Assembly: GCA_913040915.1 (NCBI GenBank)
Contig: CAJWHW010000033.1
Location: 1-18,494, forward strand
DNA length: 18,494 nt
Reading direction: 5' to 3'
From: an uncultured Fidelibacterota bacterium
GTDB lineage: Bacteria > Fidelibacterota > Marinisomatia > Marinisomatales > UBA1611
How positions within the stretch are numbered: position 1 is the stretch's first letter; each line of letters starts with the position of its first letter. Made by a program: the position numbers and the translations under genes. The notes under the pieces were generated by a model. The model was not told where the DNA came from and ran no database searches. It worked only from the letters and a program-made list of their open reading frames with translations. This document shows positions 3,854 through 16,375 of the stretch, one piece after another.

Positions 3854-4690
3854 GTGAGTAAGAGATTATTATTTTCCTGTCTTTCTCTATTTATATTTTC
3901 CTGTTCTCCAAAAGTAGTTCTATTAGAACATCCAAAAATCGTCTCTATATATTTTGAAAATAAAATAGAATCATTGGAAAAGAATGAAATAAATACCTTA
4001 ACTGGAAAAAGAAAAATTATAAAAGCTAAAGTTGAGTATGCTTTTGGTGTAATTATGGAAGAAAGTGACCGTTTAATAGATGAAGATTATTTTTTAGCGC
4101 TCCATGGATATAAAAAAGCGAATAAACTGTTTACTGAATCCAAATTATTATCTATTTCCATTTTAAATGAATCTTATCCAAATTTTAATGATTGGCTTAA
4201 AAATAAATCGGAAATTCAATTCAAACCCGATGATGTATATGATTTATATTGGCTAGCTGCCGCAATTGGTGGTGCAATTAAATCCAGTAGAGGAAACCCT
4301 TTTGAATTAGTAAATCTACCTACAGTGGGAAAATTAATAAAAACTGCTATTAAATTAGATCCTGATTGGGGACAGGGTGCATTATTTTCGGCAATGATGA
4401 GTTTTACAGTAACGAGGACAGATATAAGTGGGGATGCATTGGTAGATTCTACAAGATATTATTTTGATAGGGCTATTACAATCTCCGATAGTTTGGATGC
4501 AAGTCCATTCATAACTTTTGCAGAATCTATTTATAAACCATTGCAAAATAAGGAAGGATTTCAGATGAACCTGAATTATGTTTTGAGTATGGATGCAGGT
4601 AAAAATTCAAAATTTGAACTTGGAAATTTAATTGCACAAAAACGTGCAAAATGGCTGTTGTCTAAAACAAATGAATACTTTTTAGAATGA
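3854..4690 (+). CDS. tatT: TRAP transporter T-component lipoprotein (TatT, TPAT system)
   Basis: GTG start and lipobox IFSC. Motifs LYWLAAAIGGAI, LDPDWGQGA, YFDRAITIS and C-terminal NLIAQKRAKWLL..EYF match TatT. ATGA overlap with the downstream DctP-type gene. Confidence 0.8.
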   Translation: MSKRLLFSCLSLFIFSCSPKVVLLEHPKIVSIYFENKIESLEKNEINTLTGKRKIIKAKVEYAFGVIMEESDRLIDEDYFLALHGYKKANKLFTESKLLSISILNESYPNFNDWLKNKSEIQFKPDDVYDLYWLAAAIGGAIKSSRGNPFELVNLPTVGKLIKTAIKLDPDWGQGALFSAMMSFTVTRTDISGDALVDSTRYYFDRAITISDSLDASPFITFAESIYKPLQNKEGFQMNLNYVLSMDAGKNSKFELGNLIAQKRAKWLLSKTNEYFLE

Positions 4691-5661
4691 AACGAATAAT
4701 AATAATTTTTCTTTTTCTATCATCTATTGCATTTAGTCGGAAGATTATTGTGAAAATGGCAACTTTAGCACCAGAAGGTACAGATTGGCACGGTATGTTA
4801 ATAGAAATGGGTCAAGAGTGGAAAAAAGTGACCAAGGGTAAAGTGGAGTTACGGATCTATCCAGGAGGTGTCATTGGAGATGAAAGAGATATGGTGCGTA
4901 AGATGAGAATTGGTCAGATCCATGCTGCAGGAATTTCTACTGAAGGATTAACTGAAATTGATTCTGATTTTTCCGCATTTTATGTGCCTCTTGCTTTTCA
5001 AAATGAAGATGATATTAAACGTGTTCTTGAAGATATGTTACCATCTTTAGAGAAAAAAATTGAAGAAAAAGGATTTAAGTTATTATATATAGCTGATTTA
5101 GGTTGGGCATATTGGTTTTCTAATTCAAAGGTCAAAACTCCAAAAGACTTAAAAAATAAAAAAATATTTACGTGGGCAGGTGATTTTAAATGGGCAGAGA
5201 TATATAAAAAAGCAGGATTTAATCCCGTACCCCTAGCATCAACAGATATTTTATCCGGTCTCCAAACTGGACTAATTGATGCCATCTCTACCATGCCTTT
5301 GTATGCTCTAGCTCAGCAATCATTTGGTATTGCAAATCACATGCTAGATTTAAAGTGGGGAGCTTTAATGGCAGGAATCATTATTAATCAGAAAACCTGG
5401 AATCGAATTCCAAAAAAATACCATAATGATCTAATTTCTGCAGCTCAAGCAATTCGTAAAAAACACTTAGAAACTAATCGCACTGCTGAACAACAAGCGC
5501 TTGAAGCTATGAAACAATACGGATTAACCATTCATACGCCTTCAGATGATGAAGTTATTCAGTGGAAGTCAGAGGTAAAAAGAATGGAGCCTCATCTTCG
5601 CGGTAATGTGATTTCTAGTGAAATCTATGATCGTGTAGTGAAATTAACAGAAGATCAATAG
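4687..5661 (+). CDS. dctP: TRAP transporter substrate-binding protein DctP (TatP subtype)
   Basis: Signal peptide followed by KMATLAPEGTDW, IYPGGVIGDERDMVRKMRIGQI, TPKDLKNKKI and LSGLQTGLIDA. Confidence 0.93.
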   Translation: MKRIIIIFLFLSSIAFSRKIIVKMATLAPEGTDWHGMLIEMGQEWKKVTKGKVELRIYPGGVIGDERDMVRKMRIGQIHAAGISTEGLTEIDSDFSAFYVPLAFQNEDDIKRVLEDMLPSLEKKIEEKGFKLLYIADLGWAYWFSNSKVKTPKDLKNKKIFTWAGDFKWAEIYKKAGFNPVPLASTDILSGLQTGLIDAISTMPLYALAQQSFGIANHMLDLKWGALMAGIIINQKTWNRIPKKYHNDLISAAQAIRKKHLETNRTAEQQALEAMKQYGLTIHTPSDDEVIQWKSEVKRMEPHLRGNVISSEIYDRVVKLTEDQ

Positions 5662-5670
5662 TTTCCCACA

Positions 5671-7479
5671 GTGAATAAGATTAAGAACCACCTTATTAGT
5701 TATCTAAAAAGGGGTGAAGATACTTTAGCATTCATAATCTTTGTCACAATGACGCTCCTACCTGCAATTGAGACATTAACTCGAATTTTTAATACAAATA
5801 GTATTCCTGCCTCTCAAGTCTTAGTACAACATTTTACTTTATGGATTGGATTTATTGGTGCAGTATTAGCTACACGGCAAAATAAACTATTGGCCCTAAC
5901 TAAGAGTTCGCTTTTTGATCAGGCAGAAAAAATACATTTTGGAAAATGGATTGCTAAAGTTATTACATTCCTGGTGTTAGTAGCCTTAACCTGGGGCAGT
6001 TGGGAACTTTTAAAAGTTGAATTTCAATACCCAATTGATATAGCACCATATATTCCACGGTGGTTTGCCCAGATAATTATGCCATTGGGTTTTGGGTTAA
6101 TGGCACTTCAGGTTTATTTCAATAGTTATAAAAAAACTGTTCATAGAATCTCGCTAGTACTAATTGGGTTTCTATTTTCAATCAATACATTTACTGATAC
6201 ATTATTTGAAGTTGCTCCTGTTGTATGGATTGGGTCAGTAATTATTTTAACTGCATTGATCTATGGAGCACCTATTTTTGTTGGATTAGGTGGGATGGCT
6301 GTTTTGCTATTTTGGGTAGATTATACACCCATTTCTGCCATTCCAACGGAAGCATATCGAATTGTTGTGTCTCCCACGTTGCCAACAATTCCCTTGTTTA
6401 CATTGGCTGGATATTTATTAGCTGAAAGTAAAGCGTCTACTAGGTTGGTGAAAGTTTTCCATGAATTGTTTGGGTGGATTCCAGGTGGAACGCCTGTGAT
6501 TATAGTTGTTTTGTGTGGTTTTTTTACTGCTTTAACAGGTGGATCAGGTGTGACAATCTTGGCATTGGGAGGTCTATTATTGCCTCTACTTTTGAAAGAG
6601 GGATATAGTCGGATATTTTCATTAGGACTTATCACTGTTTCAGGTTCGTTGGGTCTTTTATTTCCGCCTAGTCTTCCTGCAATTATTTATGGTGTTACGG
6701 CCGGTATTTCAGTAAAAGATGTTTTCATTGCCGGATTAATTCCAGGCCTTTTGTTGGTTTTCATGATGTCTGCTTGGGCATTATATCAAGGGAAGAAAGA
6801 CAAAATTGTACTTAATAAATTTAATGTAAATGAAGCAATCAGTGTTTGTTTGGATACAAAATGGGAATTACTAATACCAATCTTGATTCTGTTTGGTGTA
6901 TTTGGTGGTTTCACTACATTAGTTGAAACGGCAGCACTAACTGTTTTATATGTCTTTTATATAGAATGTTATATTTACAAAGATATTAAGATTCAGGAAT
7001 TACCAAAAATTATAATTGATTGCGCCACTCTAATTGGTGGTGTATTAATTATTCTCGGTGTTGCTATGGGATTAACAAGTTATCTTGTTGATGCGCAAAT
7101 ACCAATTTTAATTCTTTCATGGGCCAAAGAGATGATTGCATCAAAATATGCTTTTCTACTCATGTTAAATATATTTTTACTTATAGTTGGCTGTCTAATG
7201 GATATATTCTCAGCAATCATAGTTATTGTTCCATTGATTGCACCTTTAGGTACATATTTTGGAATTGATCCTGTTCATTTAGCAATTATTTTTATAGCCA
7301 ATTTAGAACTGGGTTTTTTAACTCCTCCAGTTGGCATGAATTTATTTTTAGCTGCATATCGTTTTGATGAAGATATGCCAAAAATCTATCGTGCTACACT
7401 CCCGTTCTTTTTAGTACGGTTATTAGCTGTAGGTTTAATTACATATATACCCGTTTTAACTCTTGGATTGTTAAGTTAA
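5671..7479 (+). CDS. dctM: TRAP transporter fused small/large permease DctQM
   Basis: Very hydrophobic 602 aa protein. The N-terminal DctQ-like segment includes LWIGFIGAVLA and IPRW..QIIMP. DctM motifs: IPLFTLAGYLL, GSLGLLFPPSLPAIIYG, LFIAG-like VFIAGLIPG, GIDPVHLAII, ELGFLTPPVGMNLF. Confidence 0.93.
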   Translation: MNKIKNHLISYLKRGEDTLAFIIFVTMTLLPAIETLTRIFNTNSIPASQVLVQHFTLWIGFIGAVLATRQNKLLALTKSSLFDQAEKIHFGKWIAKVITFLVLVALTWGSWELLKVEFQYPIDIAPYIPRWFAQIIMPLGFGLMALQVYFNSYKKTVHRISLVLIGFLFSINTFTDTLFEVAPVVWIGSVIILTALIYGAPIFVGLGGMAVLLFWVDYTPISAIPTEAYRIVVSPTLPTIPLFTLAGYLLAESKASTRLVKVFHELFGWIPGGTPVIIVVLCGFFTALTGGSGVTILALGGLLLPLLLKEGYSRIFSLGLITVSGSLGLLFPPSLPAIIYGVTAGISVKDVFIAGLIPGLLLVFMMSAWALYQGKKDKIVLNKFNVNEAISVCLDTKWELLIPILILFGVFGGFTTLVETAALTVLYVFYIECYIYKDIKIQELPKIIIDCATLIGGVLIILGVAMGLTSYLVDAQIPILILSWAKEMIASKYAFLLMLNIFLLIVGCLMDIFSAIIVIVPLIAPLGTYFGIDPVHLAIIFIANLELGFLTPPVGMNLFLAAYRFDEDMPKIYRATLPFFLVRLLAVGLITYIPVLTLGLLS

Positions 7480-7585: not shown

Positions 7586-7628
7586 TTGCTCTTGAAAAGA
7601 GCAGTTTTTATCATTAAATACTTAGGAG
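7586..7628 (+). promoter_or_regulatory. Candidate sigma70-type promoter and Shine-Dalgarno for the porV gene run
   Basis: TTGCTC (7586-7591), 17 bp spacer, TATCAT (7609-7614). AGGAG at 7624-7628 lies 7 nt before ATG 7636. This is the only sizeable intergenic gap in the + strand run. Confidence 0.4.
7587..7609 (+). terminator. Possible intrinsic terminator (or operator palindrome) downstream of dctQM
   Basis: Perfect inverted repeat TGCTCTT-GAA-AAGAGCA (7587-7603) followed by GTTTTT. Confidence 0.35.
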
Positions 7629-7635
7629 ACGTTCA

Positions 7636-8985
7636 ATGAAGCGTTTAGGGATCAGATTGTCCTTACTGGCAATCCTCATTAATCCGATTTTTGCACAAAG
7701 CGAAGCAGGTGCAATATTTTTATTAATTGCACCTGGTGCTCGTGCCGGTGGTATGGGTGAAGCTCAGGTAGCTATCGCAAATGATGCCTACGCCAGTTAC
7801 TGGAATCCTGCGGGGTTAGGGTTTCTTGAAGGTCAAGAGCTGGCTATGATGCATGTAAATTGGTTGCCAGGTCTAGCTGATGATCTATATTATGAATTTT
7901 TTGCTTTTCGTAAAAAATATCCCACATTAGGCACTATTGGTGGACACTTAATTTTTTTAAATCTTGGTGAACAGATAAGAACCAGTGAAACCGGTGATGA
8001 ATTAGGTACATTTACAAGTTACATGTCCGCTTTTTCTCTTTCCTACAGTGCTTTAATTTCTGCCACACAATCTTTTGGTATCAATGCAAAAGTTTCTTAC
8101 CAACACCTAGTTGAAATCGGTGCTGGAAGCGAGAAGGGAAAAGGTACATCAACGGATTTTGGATTTGATATTGGTTATATGCATAAAGAATGGTTTCTTC
8201 CAAAATTAACCATTGGAATAAATCTTTCAAATTTAGGGCCAAAAGTTTCTTTTATTGATCCAGATCAAGCAGATCCTCAACCAACTAACTTAACCTTGGG
8301 GTTGCATTACGCATTAGTTCAGAGTGAGTTCAACAAACTTAGTATTGTTTATGATGTAGATAAACTTCTTGTTTCATCATATCCTGATATGGATTGGGAT
8401 GGTGACGGCTATATTGGTGGTTATGATGAAGATGGTAATGTGAGCCCTGGAAATGATTATAATAAAGATGGTAAACTGGAAATTGCACATACAGATCCGA
8501 TCTATAAGGCTATTTTTACTTCCTGGGTAAATGATTGGCTACTGGGTGGTGATATGGATTATGGACCTGATGGTGCTGGTAATGGAGATAAAATGATTGG
8601 TGGTTATAAATGGGATGATCTAGATGGTGATGGAAAAATTGATTTGAGTGATGATGAGATTATTAAATCTGGTGATAACCCTGGAGATGATGACTGGGGG
8701 GAATATAATGAATACGGGGAGAAGGAGGTTGGGAACTCTAAAAAAAGATCCTTAACCAATGAATTAGATCGTCTTGTTCATAATATTGGGTTTGAGTATT
8801 GGTATGGAAAATATTTTGCTATTCGTTCAGGCTTTTATTATGATAAGATAGGAAAAATAAGTAATCCCACTTTTGGTATTGGTCTTCGTTTTGCAGGGTA
8901 TGGATTCGATTTTGGCTATACCTACGGTGAAACAGGACACCCATTAACTAATACGATGCGATTTTCTCTCAATATGGAATTCTAA
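7636..8985 (+). CDS. porV: PorV/PorQ-family outer-membrane beta-barrel (type IX secretion shuttle-like) with acidic loop insertions
   Basis: Signal peptide, FLLIAPGARAGGMGEA, YWNPAGL, WLPGLADDLYY, NLSNLGPKVSF, PTNLTLG, DVDKLLV, GFEYWY..FAIRSGF, and C-terminal HPLTNTMRFSLNMEF ending in Phe. Confidence 0.88.
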   Translation: MKRLGIRLSLLAILINPIFAQSEAGAIFLLIAPGARAGGMGEAQVAIANDAYASYWNPAGLGFLEGQELAMMHVNWLPGLADDLYYEFFAFRKKYPTLGTIGGHLIFLNLGEQIRTSETGDELGTFTSYMSAFSLSYSALISATQSFGINAKVSYQHLVEIGAGSEKGKGTSTDFGFDIGYMHKEWFLPKLTIGINLSNLGPKVSFIDPDQADPQPTNLTLGLHYALVQSEFNKLSIVYDVDKLLVSSYPDMDWDGDGYIGGYDEDGNVSPGNDYNKDGKLEIAHTDPIYKAIFTSWVNDWLLGGDMDYGPDGAGNGDKMIGGYKWDDLDGDGKIDLSDDEIIKSGDNPGDDDWGEYNEYGEKEVGNSKKRSLTNELDRLVHNIGFEYWYGKYFAIRSGFYYDKIGKISNPTFGIGLRFAGYGFDFGYTYGETGHPLTNTMRFSLNMEF

Positions 8986-8997
8986 AAACCACTATTC

Positions 8998-11793
8998 ATG
9001 GTGGGCAATCTCTTCTTATTTAGATCAATATTCTTGATCTGTTTTATTTCTTTTGCATTTTCGGACATAACCGGGCAAATGCGTATTTGTGCGATTCGGG
9101 TTTCGTTCCAAGGCGATGATGATGAAAGTACTTCAGGTAATGGACAATTTATTTTTTCAACAGATGGAATTGATTGTGGAAATTATACAATTGATCCACC
9201 TCCTCATAATAGATCCTACTTTGAATCTCAATTAAAAGCTGTCGATTCCTATTTTAGTGCTGTATCTTATGGGAAATTTGGTATTGATCTTGAAAATTCT
9301 ACTGTATATCCATATGAAGAGATCAGTAGCTATTCATTACCGAATTCAATGAATTATTATAATCCATATGATCAAGATGATATTCAGGAAATCAGGATTA
9401 CTGAACTGCTTTCAGATGCCGTTCAGATAGCATATGAGATTGACCAAGTTGATTTTTCTTACTATGATCATATAATAATATTCCATGCAGGAATTGGTCA
9501 GGATTTCTCATTACCATTCTTAGACCCAACGCCAGAAGATATTCCATCAACTTTTATCGATAATGATATGATAATTAATAGCTTAGGTACTTCATCAATT
9601 ATTGCAGGAATACACCAAATTAAACAGGGAATCATATTACCAGAAACACAGAACCATCTTCTCTTTGATATTGCTGAATCTATGTTCTCTGATGCATTAG
9701 AGCCTTGTGAATATCAGTATGGTCTAACTGGTACATTTGCACTTATGCTTGGTTTCGCAGCAGGATTCCCACCACTTTGGAATATTGAAACGGGGGAAAG
9801 TGGTGTTGGTATTTTTGGTCTCATGGATCAGGGATCCAATAATGGACTCGGTCTAATCCCTGCACCACCCACAGCTTGGACACGAGTGTATGCTGGATGG
9901 GATATTCCCATAGAAGTTTCCTTTAATACAGAAATAGAATTACCAAGTCGTTCAGAGAATAATTTGGTTAGAATAAATATAAATAAATCTGAATATTTTC
10001 TAATCGAAAACCGAGATCATTCTATTAAACAAGGAATTAGTTTAGATTCGATGCGGTATGTAATATATGAAGAAAGCGGTAAAAATGAATATCCACCACT
10101 CATAAATGTATTGCAGGATTCTTTAGATTTACAGAAAGATGAAAATGGTGTAATTATATCAGTACCAAATTATGATATAGGTCTGCCTGCATCAGGGTTA
10201 TTAATTTGGCATATAGATGAAACTGTTATCAATGCTGGCATCAAGGATTATACTGTTAATTCTAATTTATCCAGGCTTGGAATTGATTTAGAGGAGGCGG
10301 ATGGTGCTCAAGATATTGGATATATCTCTATTCATATTTTTAATAATCCCTCTGTAGGATATTTCGGTGATGTCTGGTTCAAGGGAAATACACAATATGA
10401 ATTAGCAAATACAATTATGGAAGGAATGCATCCAGAATTTGGTCCCTTTACTTATCCTTCCACAAAATCGAATAATGGCTCTTCATCATTTATTAAGGTA
10501 AGCGATATATCTGAATCAGATAGCATTATGACTTTTTCCGTTTCTAATAATTTAATACGAAGCGGTTTCCCAATAAATAATGGAGAAATAATTCAATCAT
10601 TTATTGCTTCTGAATATCCGATGATTTTAGGTATCTCCGATTCATTATGGATTGCACCAATAAACACGCTATCGAATAGAATATACTTCCACGGCCAAAA
10701 ACCATTTTATAAAATATTCACCATAATTGATGAACAGGAGAACCATACTTTTATTAATATCTATGAATCTCCTATTTTATATCCAGATTATTCTGGAGAC
10801 AGCTATATAAAGTATGAAACTCGTTATGATTATCATCATCCAACAAATACAATAACAAGACTTTTTACTCATGAATCATCCTGGGATTCTGGAAGTACAC
10901 CAATTTGGGATGACTCATTAATTTATCTAAATTCATTTGAATGGGATTCTCATTCCAGTAGGGTATTTACATCTTCATTTACCTATGATATTGGTATTGG
11001 AAATTCAGGAATTTCAAGAACAGATTTTGACGGAACAATAATTAACTGGGAAGATATTTCATTCAAGTCAATCTCTGGAGTGGATTTAAATATGGATGCG
11101 AATCCTGATGTACTAGCTCTTGATTCTTCAGGCTATTTATATGCATTCAATTCTGAGTTAATGTTATTATCAGGTTTCCCAATTAATGAGAAGCTGCAAT
11201 CTCCAATTCTTACAAGAGATCTTATTAATGATGGATATCCTGAAATTGTTGCAAAATCAGCTGATTCTTCATCCATATACATTTTTGACCATATGGGCAA
11301 TGCCCAATATAAAATAATATCAAACCGTGACGATGATGTTATTGGTCTTAAATCAATTACACAGAAGAATTCAATTATTACAAAGAGTATTATATATCAA
11401 TTTGGAGAAGAAACAGAAACAAATGGAAATAATTGGTCTTTTCATCATGGTGATTGGGGTAGAAATAGAAAAATAGAATTGGGATATTCTTTTGACTTTG
11501 ATATTCAAAGTCATCATATTCGCTCATATTGTTATCCCAATCCAATTTTCGATAATATAGGTACAATTAGAATAGAAACTGTAGATGCAGAAAATATTGA
11601 GATCAATTTATATGATTTAGCGGGATATTATATAAAGACCTGGAAAAATGAATTTATAAATTCAGGAAATCAAATTTCAGAATGGGTATGGAATGTATAT
11701 GATATAGAGTCCGGTGTATATTTTGCTCATATTGGTGTATATGGGCAAAAGGGCATTGAATCAAATATTATTAAAATTGCTGTAATTCACTAA
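8998..11793 (+). CDS. Secreted M6 (immune inhibitor A-like) metalloprotease homologue with a degenerate active site, FG-GAP-like repeats and a T9SS-type C-terminal domain
   Basis: Signal peptide. M6 framework motifs: YFSAVSYGKF, IIFHAGIGQD, FGLMDQGSNNG, PTAWTRVYAGW, EYFLIENR, SGLLIWHIDE, DLEEADG. FG-GAP-like segments DLNMDANPDV and DLINDGYPEIV. CTD-like end: YCYPNP..INLYDLAG..W..SGVYF..KIAVIH. Confidence 0.8.
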   Translation: MVGNLFLFRSIFLICFISFAFSDITGQMRICAIRVSFQGDDDESTSGNGQFIFSTDGIDCGNYTIDPPPHNRSYFESQLKAVDSYFSAVSYGKFGIDLENSTVYPYEEISSYSLPNSMNYYNPYDQDDIQEIRITELLSDAVQIAYEIDQVDFSYYDHIIIFHAGIGQDFSLPFLDPTPEDIPSTFIDNDMIINSLGTSSIIAGIHQIKQGIILPETQNHLLFDIAESMFSDALEPCEYQYGLTGTFALMLGFAAGFPPLWNIETGESGVGIFGLMDQGSNNGLGLIPAPPTAWTRVYAGWDIPIEVSFNTEIELPSRSENNLVRININKSEYFLIENRDHSIKQGISLDSMRYVIYEESGKNEYPPLINVLQDSLDLQKDENGVIISVPNYDIGLPASGLLIWHIDETVINAGIKDYTVNSNLSRLGIDLEEADGAQDIGYISIHIFNNPSVGYFGDVWFKGNTQYELANTIMEGMHPEFGPFTYPSTKSNNGSSSFIKVSDISESDSIMTFSVSNNLIRSGFPINNGEIIQSFIASEYPMILGISDSLWIAPINTLSNRIYFHGQKPFYKIFTIIDEQENHTFINIYESPILYPDYSGDSYIKYETRYDYHHPTNTITRLFTHESSWDSGSTPIWDDSLIYLNSFEWDSHSSRVFTSSFTYDIGIGNSGISRTDFDGTIINWEDISFKSISGVDLNMDANPDVLALDSSGYLYAFNSELMLLSGFPINEKLQSPILTRDLINDGYPEIVAKSADSSSIYIFDHMGNAQYKIISNRDDDVIGLKSITQKNSIITKSIIYQFGEETETNGNNWSFHHGDWGRNRKIELGYSFDFDIQSHHIRSYCYPNPIFDNIGTIRIETVDAENIEINLYDLAGYYIKTWKNEFINSGNQISEWVWNVYDIESGVYFAHIGVYGQKGIESNIIKIAVIH

Positions 11794-14738
11794 TGACTAG
11801 AATTGTTATATATTCTTTATTTATGTCTTTTGGATTTGCACAAATTGAATATAATCATCCTGAGCTTAATTGGTATACATTCGAAACAGAGAATTTTAAA
11901 ATTCACTTTCATGACGAAACCGAGATGACTGCTCGTGAAGCTGCAACAGTTGCAGAACAGATCTATCCTAAGATTACGGGGTTTTATGAATATGAACCTA
12001 AATCCAAAACACATCTTGTTCTTTTAGATCCAGATGACTATTCAAACGGTGCGGCCTATTATTATGATAATAAAATTTTAATCTGGGCTTCTCCTCTTGA
12101 TTTTGAATTACGAGGTAGTCATCGCTGGCTTCAGAATGTTATTACCCATGAATTCGCCCATATAGTTTCTTTGCAAAAGGCAATGAAGGCAGGTACAAAT
12201 ATTCCAGGAGCATATTTACAGTTCATGAATTATGAAGAAGAAAAACGTCCAGATGTTTTATATGGTTTTCCAAATACCTTAATCAGTTACCCTATACCTG
12301 GTACAATTGTCCCGCCATGGTTAGCAGAAGGGGTGGCACAATACATGTACGATGATGCTGATTGGGATCATTGGGATACCCATAGGGATATGATTTTAAG
12401 GGATAGAACAATTAATGATAAACTGTTATCTTTTACAGAAATGAATACATTTGGTAAAAAAGGTATAGGCAATGAATCCACTTATAATTCCGGTTTTGCA
12501 TTATCAACTTTTATTGCTAATGAATACGGTTCAGAATACTTAAAAATGATTATGGATGAATTAGGAAAACCAGCGCAGTTTTCTGTTAATAACGCTCTAG
12601 ATAATGTTTTAGGTGTGAGCGGTGAAAAACTTTATCAAAATTTCAAATCTACTATTGATTCTCGATATAGGATGTTGGTTGCACCAATTGAGATTAATCC
12701 TGTTTATGGAGAACAAATTCAAACAGAAGGTACTACCAACATACATCCAAAATGGCACCCCATAGAAAATGGATTTGCGTTTCTATCTAATAAGGAAAAT
12801 GATTATTTTGGTCAAACTGACTTATTCTACTACAATATGGAAACCAAGAATGAATCCAAATTAAGATCATCCATATTTTCAGCACCTTCATGGCATCCAA
12901 GTGGAAATATTATCTATTACAGTAAAAAACCAAAATTTCCTAACAAGTATGGTTCAAGATTTTATGATATTTATTCTTATGATATTCATTCAGAAACAGA
13001 AAAACGACTGACCTATGATTCAAGGGGCTTTAACCCTGTTTTTATTGTGAAGGATAGTTCTATCGCTTATTTAGCCACCTATGATGGTGGGCAGAATATC
13101 TATATACTCGATTTAAAAACAAATCAATCAAAGAAGGTAAGTGATTTTAAGAATCGTCCTATTTTGAGCCATTTATCATATGATAATAATTCACATGCAC
13201 TATTTTTTGATATAACATCCCATCATTATAGGAATATCGGTCATTTAGATCTTAATACAGGTGAAGTTATTGTTGATCTTAATCATCCTCATTATGATGA
13301 AAGGAACATGTCAGTATCCAGAAATGGTATTCAAGTATTTTCTATGGATAGAAGCGGTATTTATAACTTGTATTACATTGATCATAATAAAAATGAATTT
13401 GGATATGTAACTAATGTGACCGGTGGTGCATTTATGCCGGATTTTTCTAAGGATGGGAGAATTCTCTATTCACTCTATAAAAATGGGGCATATACTATTT
13501 CACTTTTGGATACAGTGATAAGAGTACCAGAAGATTTTGTAGGCTACTCCCCTAATTATTATAAAAATAATTCAAAATTATCAGCGCCTATTTTGACTTT
13601 AAATCAGACGAGTGCTAGACCATATGTAGACCAGTTTCCAAATATGTTTATTATGCCAAAAATCATGGTGGACTATGGTACATTCAAACCGGGGTTATAT
13701 TTTTATTCAAGTGAAGTAATCAATCGTTTGTCAATCTTTGGCGGTGCTTCACTAAATCAATTAAATGATATTGATCTATTTTTTATTTTTGATTTCAAAC
13801 GATTTTATCCAACCTTATTTTTTGAGACTTACTACCTTACTAGAAACACAACTGATAAATCTAAATATCAAGGAATATATGATATCAATGATGATATTAA
13901 ATTTCGTTTGATTCAATTTCGTACTGGTTTAAAAATTCCATTTTATGGTAGTTTATTTGAAATATCAGGGACTAGACAGTGGTATCGTGCTTTTATTAAT
14001 CAAACTTTACCGAAAGAAAGAATTGAAGCAGGAGCTGCCTATGATTATTTCCGAGGATGGATGTTAAGTACAAACTGGTCACTTAATATGATCAAAAGAA
14101 GATTTGATAAGGGGATAAATCCATCAAAGGGTTTTAAGATATCAATAGAAATGCATTTAGAAAAAAATGATTTCATTGAAGGTCTCAATCTTTCTGATTC
14201 TGGAACACTAACTGAAGAATTCAAAGAAAACAACTTATTACGAATTCAATCTGGAGGCTCTTACTACTACGAACTACCTTGGAAAAAAAGATGGACCATA
14301 TCTTTTACGGGACAAACTGGTTGGATTTCTAAATCTAATACAGATTCCTTTTTTCATTTTTACTTAGGCGGGATGCCTGGATTAAAAGGTTACCCTTTTT
14401 ATTCTATTCAAGGCACAAAAAGTATATTTATTGATGCTACTCTTCGTATTCCATTATTTCTCGAACAACACTTGCCGGTAAAATGGACTATTTGGCAGAA
14501 TAGTACTATTGGATTTATACTCCAAGCGGGAAATGCTTGGGTAGAAGAAAAATTTTCATTAAAAAAATCTGTAGGAATTCAATGGAGGTTGAATGGTTTT
14601 TCATTTTATAATTTCCCAACTGCAATTGAGGTGGAATATCATCAACCACTTGATAAATTCAAACGTGAAATCAATGAAGAACAAATAAACTATGGAGATG
14701 AAGGACGCAGCTATGTTAAAATACTTTTTGATTTTTAG
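11793..14738 (+). CDS. Gluzincin (peptidase MA-like) + TolB/PD40 beta-propeller + Omp85/BamA-like beta-barrel fusion
   Basis: Signal peptide. VITHEFAH (12147-12161 for HEFAH) and PPWLAEGVAQY. PD40-like repeats (HPKWHP, APSWHPSGNIIYY, MPDFSKDGRILYS). The C-terminal barrel has FYLGG..GLKGY (lid-lock-like motif) and ends in the beta-signal-like YVKILFDF. Confidence 0.78.
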   Translation: MTRIVIYSLFMSFGFAQIEYNHPELNWYTFETENFKIHFHDETEMTAREAATVAEQIYPKITGFYEYEPKSKTHLVLLDPDDYSNGAAYYYDNKILIWASPLDFELRGSHRWLQNVITHEFAHIVSLQKAMKAGTNIPGAYLQFMNYEEEKRPDVLYGFPNTLISYPIPGTIVPPWLAEGVAQYMYDDADWDHWDTHRDMILRDRTINDKLLSFTEMNTFGKKGIGNESTYNSGFALSTFIANEYGSEYLKMIMDELGKPAQFSVNNALDNVLGVSGEKLYQNFKSTIDSRYRMLVAPIEINPVYGEQIQTEGTTNIHPKWHPIENGFAFLSNKENDYFGQTDLFYYNMETKNESKLRSSIFSAPSWHPSGNIIYYSKKPKFPNKYGSRFYDIYSYDIHSETEKRLTYDSRGFNPVFIVKDSSIAYLATYDGGQNIYILDLKTNQSKKVSDFKNRPILSHLSYDNNSHALFFDITSHHYRNIGHLDLNTGEVIVDLNHPHYDERNMSVSRNGIQVFSMDRSGIYNLYYIDHNKNEFGYVTNVTGGAFMPDFSKDGRILYSLYKNGAYTISLLDTVIRVPEDFVGYSPNYYKNNSKLSAPILTLNQTSARPYVDQFPNMFIMPKIMVDYGTFKPGLYFYSSEVINRLSIFGGASLNQLNDIDLFFIFDFKRFYPTLFFETYYLTRNTTDKSKYQGIYDINDDIKFRLIQFRTGLKIPFYGSLFEISGTRQWYRAFINQTLPKERIEAGAAYDYFRGWMLSTNWSLNMIKRRFDKGINPSKGFKISIEMHLEKNDFIEGLNLSDSGTLTEEFKENNLLRIQSGGSYYYELPWKKRWTISFTGQTGWISKSNTDSFFHFYLGGMPGLKGYPFYSIQGTKSIFIDATLRIPLFLEQHLPVKWTIWQNSTIGFILQAGNAWVEEKFSLKKSVGIQWRLNGFSFYNFPTAIEVEYHQPLDKFKREINEEQINYGDEGRSYVKILFDF

Positions 14739-15603
14739 TATAATATTTTCTAATTATGTTGTGCGTGCTCAAGACACTTCGTCTGTACTACTAAAAGAGA
14801 CAAAGGAAGTACATTATCCAGGTAAACCGCTGCTTATGTCATTGATTCTACCCGGGGCAGGCCAAATTCATAATAAATCTCCTATGTGGAAGACTGCTAC
14901 TTTTCTGGGTGTGGAAATCGCAAGTATTGTAGCCTGGCATCAATTCACTAAAATGGCTAAGACCTTAAGAAATGAAAATGAAGAATTTGCAGATTTAAAT
15001 TGGAGTTTAAGTACATGGTTTGGATTTATAAATAATGAACCGGGGAAAACGGTACATGACGGACGTTTGTATACAGATATTGATCTTAGGGCAATGAGAG
15101 ATTATAAGGGTACACATCATTTAACATTATTTCTTTCTGGATTGTTGGCAGTAGAATATGGAGAATTTATTTCATCAGATAGCTTACATTTAGTATCTGC
15201 TTATCTTGATTCTGGATTGGTTGATGTTGTAAGAGATAGACATTTTTATGAAAACATTGGGAAATATGATCAATTTCTTGGAGGTTGGTCTGATGCAAAT
15301 ACCGAATGGTATTGGGAAGAGAAAAAGTTAGAAGACAGTACGGAGATTGTTATTAAAACTCCTTTAAAAGATGATTATCTTGATAAACGTTTCGTTACAA
15401 ATCAAATGCTCACTATGGCTAAATATAGTATAACAACCTTATTATTTAATCATGTTCTGAGTGGTTTGGAAGCAGTTTTGACTAGCCAAAAAATGGCTCG
15501 TGATAAACAAAGAAATGAAAATATCAAAACAGATTTAAGCTTGCTATATAATCCATATAACCGATCAGGTGTGGGTGGGATTTCTCTAACAGTCAATTTT
15601 TAG
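14713..15603 (+). CDS. Exported/membrane protein with a DUF5683-like N-terminal motif
   Basis: ATG 14713 is preferred (AAGGA 7 nt upstream, and it gives the signal peptide MLKYFLIFSIIFSNYVVRA). Contains PGKPLLMSLILPGAGQIHN followed by a hydrophobic helix, HFYENIGKYDQFLGGW, NHVLSGLEA, and a C-terminal beta-strand ISLTVNF. Confidence 0.6.
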   Translation: MLKYFLIFSIIFSNYVVRAQDTSSVLLKETKEVHYPGKPLLMSLILPGAGQIHNKSPMWKTATFLGVEIASIVAWHQFTKMAKTLRNENEEFADLNWSLSTWFGFINNEPGKTVHDGRLYTDIDLRAMRDYKGTHHLTLFLSGLLAVEYGEFISSDSLHLVSAYLDSGLVDVVRDRHFYENIGKYDQFLGGWSDANTEWYWEEKKLEDSTEIVIKTPLKDDYLDKRFVTNQMLTMAKYSITTLLFNHVLSGLEAVLTSQKMARDKQRNENIKTDLSLLYNPYNRSGVGGISLTVNF

Positions 15604-15607
15604 AAAA

Positions 15608-16375
15608 ATGAAGAAAATAATTAGTTATACAAGTGTAATATTTCTATTATTTTTCGTTTCCTGTGCAGGATCGAAAGTTGATGATGAAATGTCTTTGCAA
15701 GAAAAATTTAAAAGTGGGTTGGAGAATCTTGAAAAGGGAAAGTATTTACAAGCGCAGATAGATTTTAATTATGTTGTCATACGTGGAACCGGATCAGATT
15801 TAGGTGATGATGCACAGTATTACCTTGCTGAGGCGTACTATCAAAATAAGGAATATTTAGAAGCAGTAGCGGAATATGAGAAATTAACTCGTAGAATGGG
15901 GTTTAGTCCATTTATTGAGGATGCTCGATTTAAAATTTGTGAGGCGTATCGAATTGAATCACCTAAATATTTTCATGATCAGGAGTACACAGAAAAGGCG
16001 CTTGAAAGATACCAAGAGTTTTTAGACGATTTTCCAAATTCCAAGTATATTCCAGATATTTTAACATCGATTGGAATTCTACGGCAGAAAATGGCAACCA
16101 AATTATATGAGACTGGTATCCTGTATATTAAAATGGAAGAATATGATTCTGCAAAGATGATATTTAATCGTGTCATTGATACTTTTTATGATACAGCGGT
16201 TGTGCATCTGGCAAGGCAGGGTAAAGTGAAGGCACTAGCTCAAAACAGACAAATAGATGAGGCATTAGAATTTTTGAATGATCATGAGTCTAAACTGAAA
16301 GAAAATGGATTATACGAAGAAGCAGAGAAAACTATTTTAAATATTCAGAAAAAAATAGCTAAAGAAACAGAATGA
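15608..16375 (+). CDS. bamD: Outer membrane protein assembly factor BamD (lipoprotein)
   Basis: Lipobox FVSC. TPR pattern DDAQYYLAEAYY..EY..A..EYE, then SP..DQEYTEKALERYQEFLDDFPNSKY and KLYETGILYIKMEEYDSA, typical of BamD/YfiO. Confidence 0.9.
   Translation: MKKIISYTSVIFLLFFVSCAGSKVDDEMSLQEKFKSGLENLEKGKYLQAQIDFNYVVIRGTGSDLGDDAQYYLAEAYYQNKEYLEAVAEYEKLTRRMGFSPFIEDARFKICEAYRIESPKYFHDQEYTEKALERYQEFLDDFPNSKYIPDILTSIGILRQKMATKLYETGILYIKMEEYDSAKMIFNRVIDTFYDTAVVHLARQGKVKALAQNRQIDEALEFLNDHESKLKENGLYEEAEKTILNIQKKIAKETE

Follow-up and report, generated by a model that had tools for sequence, protein, structure and literature searches.

Dissection of type IX secretion (the T9SS) has been confined almost entirely to Porphyromonas and Flavobacterium, and one component of this system, PorZ, is a non-catalytic protein made of a propeller and a C-terminal sorting domain (CTD). 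In the attachment complex of P. gingivalis (PorU-PorV, PorZ-PorQ), PorU and PorZ are CTD-bearing surface proteins on barrels of the PorV/PorQ family (PMC12365241). Here we analyse M6i, a gene in an 18,494-nucleotide stretch of DNA (the window, which is contig C33, CAJWHW010000033.1, of a 1.86-Mb metagenome-assembled genome that is 85% complete) from an uncultured bacterium of the Fidelibacterota (Marinimicrobia). Its product, P0001, is the Marinimicrobia orthologue of a family of type IX-secreted pseudo-proteases found throughout the Fibrobacteres-Chlorobi-Bacteroidetes (FCB) bacteria. NCBI has already catalogued this type of dead M6 protein; its constant position beside porV points to an unstudied helper role.

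The catalogued family is NCBIfam NF052323 ('T9SS-dependent M6-like inactivated metalloprotease', T9SSA_dep_M6i, an equivalog), which P0001 matches with an E-value of 1.2e-124 and 417.4 bits, below the cut-off of 600. The match covers model positions 40-660 and 785-1043, and the model, with 1043 positions, exceeds the 931 residues of P0001 by about 100. Both have an M6-like fold with the HExxH...D motif inactivated, a propeller and a type A CTD, and P0001 is therefore a sub-threshold member of a curated family and not a new kind of protein. Five of 14 more distant relatives tested pass the cut-off with 601-662 bits (P0163, P0171, P0187, P0192 and P0218), and all five fall inside the P0001 family clade in our FastTree phylogeny, indicating common descent. 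Among the 121 genomes that form our sample of the phylum, none reaches the cut-off (best 563 bits), and the Marinimicrobia clade would therefore go unnamed under the automatic rule. No match to the model was found in 14 control genomes, Bacteroides thetaiotaomicron among them. The family name gives inactivation only and no function, and we found no publication on the family or its function in the open subsets of bioRxiv and PMC.

The original prediction, made from the letters of this DNA, described M6i as an unbroken frame of 931 codons, which we confirm; the genome holds one full-length copy. The features of the gene are as follows.

8998..11793, + strand: M6i gene, encoding the 931-aa T9SS-exported pseudo-metalloprotease P0001 (open reading frame; NF052323)
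8998..9066, + strand: probable Sec signal peptide, MVGNLFLFRSIFLICFISFAFS (hydrophobic N-terminus read by eye)
9067..10557, + strand: InhA/M6-fold module, residues 24-520 (predicted structure)
9721..9783, + strand: degenerate zinc-binding motif GLTGTFALMLGFAAGFPPLWN, with His replaced by L249, Glu by M250, His by F253 and Asp by P259 (hhalign register)
9823..9825, + strand: M276 in GLMDQG, candidate for a retained Met-turn (Met in 130 of 133 relatives)
10558..11421, + strand: beta-propeller of low sequence conservation, residues 521 to about 808
11533..11748, + strand: type A T9SS C-terminal sorting domain, residues 846-917 (TIGR04183, above cut-off)

Bases 9721-9783 run from ggt to aat, with ctt, atg, ttc and cca as codons 249, 250, 253 and 259, and translate as G242-LTGTFALMLGFAAGFPPLW-N262. 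The prediction had read this position, where M6 proteases have HExxH, as the segment from G-T-F-A-L-M-L-G to G-F-P-P-L-W, and the codons match it letter for letter. It had further held that the scaffold around the site is intact, and every one of the motifs it relied on is present in the translation: FHAGIGQD at residues 162-169, GLMDQGS at 274-280, AWTRVYAGW at 293-301, EYFLIENR at 332-339, GLLIWHIDE at 400-408 and EEADG at 432-436.

Domain models alone do not place the motif. Pfam sees only the T9SS tail of P0001, and PF05547, the Pfam M6 model, gives no match in the protein even at E≤10, where a weak FG-GAP_3 match is the sole addition. The M6 domain model TIGR03296 scores 58 bits, short of its cut-off of 110.8, and matches at model positions 21-119 and 185-270; because this match skips the motif, the register needed an independent test. 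We therefore used hhalign to compare a 68-sequence alignment of the P0001 family with 20 canonical M6 proteins, including the active paralogue from the same genome. The two align with a probability of 99.85 and an E-value of 1.4e-30 over 320 columns, and L249, M250, F253 and P259 are paired with canonical H312, E313, H316 and D322. H312, E313, H316, G319, P321 and D322 are invariant among the 20 canonical proteins, and we take the Asp of HEXXHXXGXXD (the D322 column) to be the third zinc ligand of M6. In P0001 the columns of this zinc site and catalytic Glu read L-M-x-x-F...P, and M276 is paired with the Met of canonical GGWDVM, conserved 3' of the motif.

Structure prediction gives the same picture. 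The AlphaFold2 model of residues 24-520 has a mean predicted local distance difference test score (pLDDT) of 93.3 and a predicted template modelling score (pTM) of 0.93, with the motif on a helix, and the four best PDB chains in a Foldseek search with this model are Bacillus anthracis InhA2 (E-values of 1.1e-9 to 4.1e-8). Sequence searches of the PDB with the single protein or with the family profile found no M6 chain; the fold search alone did so. Three methods thus confirm that P0001 has an InhA/M6-fold module in which the general-base Glu and all three zinc ligands are missing, as had been claimed from the letters, and no alignment puts a true motif elsewhere. An alternative motif, HEIxH, is found near residue 206 in nine close orthologues and was rejected because these columns are variable and P0001 reads HQIKQ.

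The protein could still be a hydrolase with a new site built from the family-invariant residues H70, H163, E216, D277, E332, E337, E433 and D458, all of which vary little or not at all among 68-120 relatives; for H70, H163 and E216, hhalign gives no pairing with a conserved canonical column. We consider this very improbable. E332, E337 and R339 (EYFLIENR) and the GLLIWH segment align to scaffold motifs that are equally conserved in active M6 proteins, so these residues are structural, and HAG falls in a region that the M6 domain model covers. To our knowledge no zincin works without the HExxH helix, and the NCBI curators likewise label the family inactivated.

The hydrophobic N-terminus of P0001 was read by eye as a putative Sec signal peptide, and the C-terminal region matches TIGR04183 with 27.2 bits (cut-off 23) and Pfam Por_Secre_tail with 24.3 bits, which does not reach the cut-off of 27. 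A predicted structure has a beta-sandwich in the CTD region (model residues 320-411), and when the family profile is searched against PDB sequences, it scores highest with the CTDs of PorU (6za2, 29.7 bits) and PorZ (5m11, 22 bits).

The loss of the catalytic Glu extends to all relatives that were aligned. A threshold of E≤1e-3 gives 2421 representative relatives of P0001 and one of E≤1e-30 gives 597, and its full-length orthologues number in the hundreds. We scored the motif columns in a MAFFT alignment of 133 members and in 74 full-length genes cut from their loci. Glu is found at position 250 in none of either set (0/133 and 0/74); among the 133 members this residue is M in 58, L in 41, N in 20 and Q in 10, and G245, G252, G256, P258 and L260 are retained in both sets. 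His at the first position is confined to one nested HQxxH..S clade (6/133), and other lineages retain Asp alone or the second His alone. In the HQFGHxLGLPS subclade (P0187, P0195, P0248, P0250, P0256 and also P0228), both His are kept with Glu changed to Gln and Asp to Ser, a combination that may permit metal binding without catalysis. As judged from sequence, the lineage-specific relics fit descent from an HExxHxxGxxD ancestor in which the Glu disappeared a single time and the motif eroded afterwards. A FastTree phylogeny of the 133 relatives and five canonical M6 proteins, which gives local support and no bootstrap, shows the family to be monophyletic with respect to canonical M6 (local support 100). 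Its members come from Marinimicrobia, KSB1, Calditrichia, LCP-89, Ignavibacteria, Balneolaceae and metagenome-assembled genomes of Bacteroidota, and the N-domain is 35-70% identical across these phyla.

Pairwise ratios of non-synonymous to synonymous substitution rates (dN/dS, Nei-Gojobori) were obtained from five informative orthologue pairs with dS of 0.30-0.68; four nearly identical pairs have too few changes for such an estimate. The ratio is 0.10-0.17 over the whole gene and 0.06-0.125 over the segment that holds the former active site (residues 196-300), with no sign of relaxed selection. Mean column conservation is 0.63 in residues 242-262, compared with 0.49 for the domain and 0.20 for the propeller. 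These values, and the monophyly of the family across phyla, support the view that the gene is maintained under strong purifying selection and that the window copy was repurposed and is not becoming a pseudogene, as the original prediction had proposed. The suspicion of an incipient pseudogene or an annotation artefact arises from a single metagenome contig, 99% identical to the window copy, which has GAA changed to TAA at codon 408 among its 8 differences. The stop (L097:3001-5796) is either a sequencing error or the mark of a strain with a truncated copy, and 8 differences have no power for dN/dS. Against it stand the unbroken frame, the low dN/dS, the many full-length orthologues and the high-confidence predicted fold; its probability is practically nil, and for the window copy it is refuted.

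M6i stands in a conserved row of genes, porV, M6i, P0002, a DUF5683 gene, bamD and nadD, separated by tiny gaps or overlaps. The gap between porV and M6i is 12 nt, and the M6i stop codon overlaps the P0002 start (TAATG). The neighbouring features are as follows.

7586..7604, + strand: terminator-like hairpin with T-run, 3' of the TRAP transporter genes (consensus scan, 5 sites against 4.6 expected, weak)
7636..8985, + strand: porV-family gene for an outer-membrane barrel of 449 aa, P0003 (Pfam and NCBIfam PorV models)
11793..14738, + strand: P0002, 981 aa, with an MA-clan peptidase domain (HEFAH), a TolB-like propeller and an Omp85-type barrel
14692..15603, + strand: DUF5683-family gene, 303 aa, fourth in the conserved row (Pfam DUF5683 30.6 bits, cut-off 26.7)
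15608..16375, + strand: bamD (TIGR03302 109.3 bits, cut-off 81.4)

To count neighbours we used 80 loci from one-genome-per-species contigs, taking as denominators the loci with room for the gene in question. In 68 of 68 loci, drawn from several FCB phyla, the gene immediately upstream of M6i is porV-like. M6i is followed by a P0002-like gene in 60 of 64, and of the four exceptions at least one (L057) is due to an M6i match that ends early; the DUF5683 gene is present in 52 of 57. The row porU-porV-M6i is found in 10 of the 80 loci. The hairpin weakly suggests that porV starts a new transcription unit; a promoter scan was uninformative (50 sites against 53 expected).

P0003 is the best of seven PorV-model matches in the genome and scores 80.1 bits with Pfam PorV, 238.2 with PorV_fam (cut-off 90) and 175.5 with T9SS_OM_PorV (cut-off 250). 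It has an Asp/Gly-rich insertion of about 130 residues (about 249-379, window 8380-8770) with DxDxDG-like repeats (DGDGYIGGYDEDGN, DLDGDGKIDLSDDE), which may be a calcium-binding surface loop. The insertion is missing from the 311-aa PorV of a genus that has no M6i, where it falls in a tblastn gap, and the PorV-like genes of other phyla (348-383 aa) are too short for it. P0002 matches Peptidase_MA_2 with 36.9 bits (cut-off 32.4) and Omp85 with 27.2 bits (cut-off 24) when its parts are searched as cut-outs, and has TolB matches. Its HExxH is retained in 66 of 67 orthologues. The family has been automatically named 'TolB', and we saw no described function for it.

In the sample of the phylum, where M6i was called at E≤1e-30, the gene is present in 111 of 121 genomes (74 of the 81 high-quality ones) and PorU in 112. 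Both are present in 110 genomes and both are absent from eight, leaving three discordant genomes (118/121 concordant) that are 65%, 72% and 89% complete. The eight double negatives belong to two genera, which keep SprA above the cut-off (4/4 tested) and a PorV-like gene (5/5 tested) and have just 3-4 CTD-only matches. In one of them, with genomes of about 1 Mb, both genomes examined (2/2; L119 and L121, from G071 and G024 respectively) are collinear with the window in the order TPR (tetratricopeptide repeat)-SHMT (serine hydroxymethyltransferase)-TRAP-porV-bamD-nadD-CaCA-ftsE; M6i, P0002 and the DUF5683 gene are missing exactly between porV and bamD, so that the 311-aa porV abuts bamD. These are streamlined genomes from the same order, without PorU elsewhere, in which SprA and a short PorV remain. 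The other genus (G019 and G025) has genomes of about 4.3 Mb with 22-23 PorV-model matches (stretches, several per gene), SprA (tested in G019), no PorU or M6i and few type A CTDs, and its T9SS may run on another class of cargo. As far as genome comparison goes, the pattern ties the three-gene block to the PorU/type A branch and not to the translocon, by two events only and with most of the cargo lost as well.

One reading of this block is that M6i is the partner of P0002, the dead module presenting or holding substrates for the HExxH enzyme or regulating it, in turnover or quality control of outer-membrane proteins and not in T9SS attachment. The translational coupling through TAATG, the frequency with which a P0002-like gene follows M6i, the HExxH kept in nearly all P0002 orthologues and in no M6i, the deletion of M6i, P0002 and the DUF5683 gene as a single block, and the bamD gene downstream and BamG-like gene upstream are all in its favour. 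We nevertheless find it distinctly unlikely as the sole account. M6i and P0002 are not paralogues (M6 versus MA_2), so the classic pairing of enzyme and pseudoenzyme is inapplicable; weak P0002-like matches occur in 3 of 5 genomes that have no M6i; and both the tighter, universal porV linkage and the concordance with PorU are left unexplained. A partnership with P0002 is compatible with the explanation we prefer, and the two are not exclusive.

That explanation, which we hold with middling confidence, is that M6i is a PorV-linked, non-catalytic accessory of the PorU-dependent processing or attachment of type A cargo. In its favour are the type A CTD, the porV-like gene upstream in every locus with room and the porU-porV-M6i rows, the concordance with PorU, the two double losses in which SprA and a PorV-like gene are kept, the block missing between porV and bamD in the collinear loci, and the operon-like spacing of porV, M6i and P0002. 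M6i would be exported via SprA, be retained on the cell surface and dock to the PorV barrel, where it would assist the processing or attachment of cargo without catalysis of its own. The former substrate cleft, now lined by Leu, Met, Phe and Pro, and the propeller would serve as binding surfaces for cargo, CTD or anchor, and M6i would probably act with P0002, as an Omp85-anchored HExxH peptidase, and with the DUF5683 protein. Of the choice that had been predicted for the dead protease, between a binding, a chaperone and a structural subunit, the non-catalytic role is supported, and the linkage to porV narrows the choice to a role linked to the T9SS.

Several observations weigh against a part in cargo attachment. 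Gene order is evidence of co-expression and not of binding, and porU of the same genome is unlinked (contig C9, 563.5 bits). A propeller as poorly conserved as that of M6i (0.20) is unusual for a machine part. Of 10 non-Marinimicrobia genomes with M6i, 7 also have PorZ-like open reading frames (573-783 aa), which leaves no obvious gap for M6i to fill. The co-loss amounts to two independent events, and since both lineages also lost most of their CTD cargo, the loss of M6i could be that of another type A cargo.

This last point leads to the view that M6i is itself ordinary T9SS cargo, a surface binder or adhesin that captures peptides, proteins or particles for a heterotrophic cell and stands beside porV through shared constitutive expression. 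M6i has a normal type A CTD, the cargo of Marinimicrobia commonly includes active proteins of the same architecture (M6, FG-GAP repeats and a CTD), its propeller is variable as in surface binders, and the lineages without M6i have lost most other CTD cargo. On the other hand, a single-copy gene that is nearly universal in the phylum and fixed by porV in every locus is rare among cargo genes, and an N-domain so well conserved across phyla is unlike that of environment-facing adhesins. We judge this view somewhat unlikely, as the strongest competitor of the PorV-linked accessory.

If M6i is such an accessory, it would add to PorZ and would not substitute for it. Replacement of PorZ by M6i is disfavoured, as PorZ-like proteins coexist with M6i and it is thus not simply a substitute. 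The model of the PorZ N-terminal propeller, PF21544 (PorZ_N_b_propeller), was not found in P0001 or in its own genome, which is 85% complete, and in the phylum it is weak in 17 of 121 genomes, five of them marginally above the cut-off.

A bolder and rather doubtful proposal is that M6i, P0002 and the DUF5683 protein form an undescribed three-protein T9SS module that is ancestral to the FCB bacteria, docked to PorV and working with PorU when type A cargo is processed or anchored, in which the dead M6 cleft would be an adaptor that holds cargo or anchor. P. gingivalis and F. johnsoniae may have lost this module, and its loss in the classical Bacteroidota models would explain why it was never found genetically.

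The rest of the window holds a BamG-like gene (94.7 bits, not reaching the cut-off of 250) and a tetratricopeptide repeat gene at 1-2546. Together with bamD these flank the cassette, so that several genes of outer-membrane biogenesis are gathered in one stretch. The BamG-like and bamD genes raised the idea that M6i is BamM; this was rejected because BamM of the Bacteroidota BAM complex, the machinery for beta-barrel assembly, is described as a lipoprotein of peptidyl-prolyl isomerase fold with a calcium-bound domain (PMC12611786). Positions 3854-7479 hold an operon for a tripartite ATP-independent periplasmic (TRAP) transporter, including an accessory protein of TAtT type and a permease in which DctQ and DctM are fused; most loci of marine Marinimicrobia show this operon in synteny with porV.

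A dead protease that is fixed by porV across many FCB phyla and lost with PorU is a concrete candidate, open to testing, for an accessory so far missing from the account of cargo attachment, and one that concerns the abundant marine Marinimicrobia and their relatives. M6i further offers a clear example from nature of a metzincin fold retained for work other than catalysis, for whose motif loss the intact HExxH enzyme conserved in the adjoining gene, P0002, is an internal control.

Among known systems, M6i may be compared with PorU and PorZ: like them it carries a CTD, and it is encoded beside a PorV-family barrel, to which it is proposed to bind. Homology between PorZ and P0001 is limited to the CTD. 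The inactive metzincin receptor ADAM22 offers an analogy only, being eukaryotic and of another metzincin family. Within the same cell, P0001 can be set against an active M6 paralogue at G000:C3:70813-74682 (L009), an open frame of 1328 aa, or 925 aa from the first ATG (P0124), which has an M6 domain and a T9SS CTD, keeps HEFFHVLGAPDLY, passes TIGR03296 with 140.8 bits (cut-off 110.8) and does not lie beside porV. BLASTP between the two is not significant (E 0.18); relatives of the paralogue in the phylum join an M6 domain to FG-GAP repeats and a CTD, which is the M6i architecture in live form. InhA2 of B. anthracis (MEROPS M6; PDB 4yu5, 4yu6) has a fold in common with P0001 at 18% identity, and P0001 differs from it in the replacement of His, Glu, His and Asp, in T9SS export with a CTD and in the fused beta-propeller.

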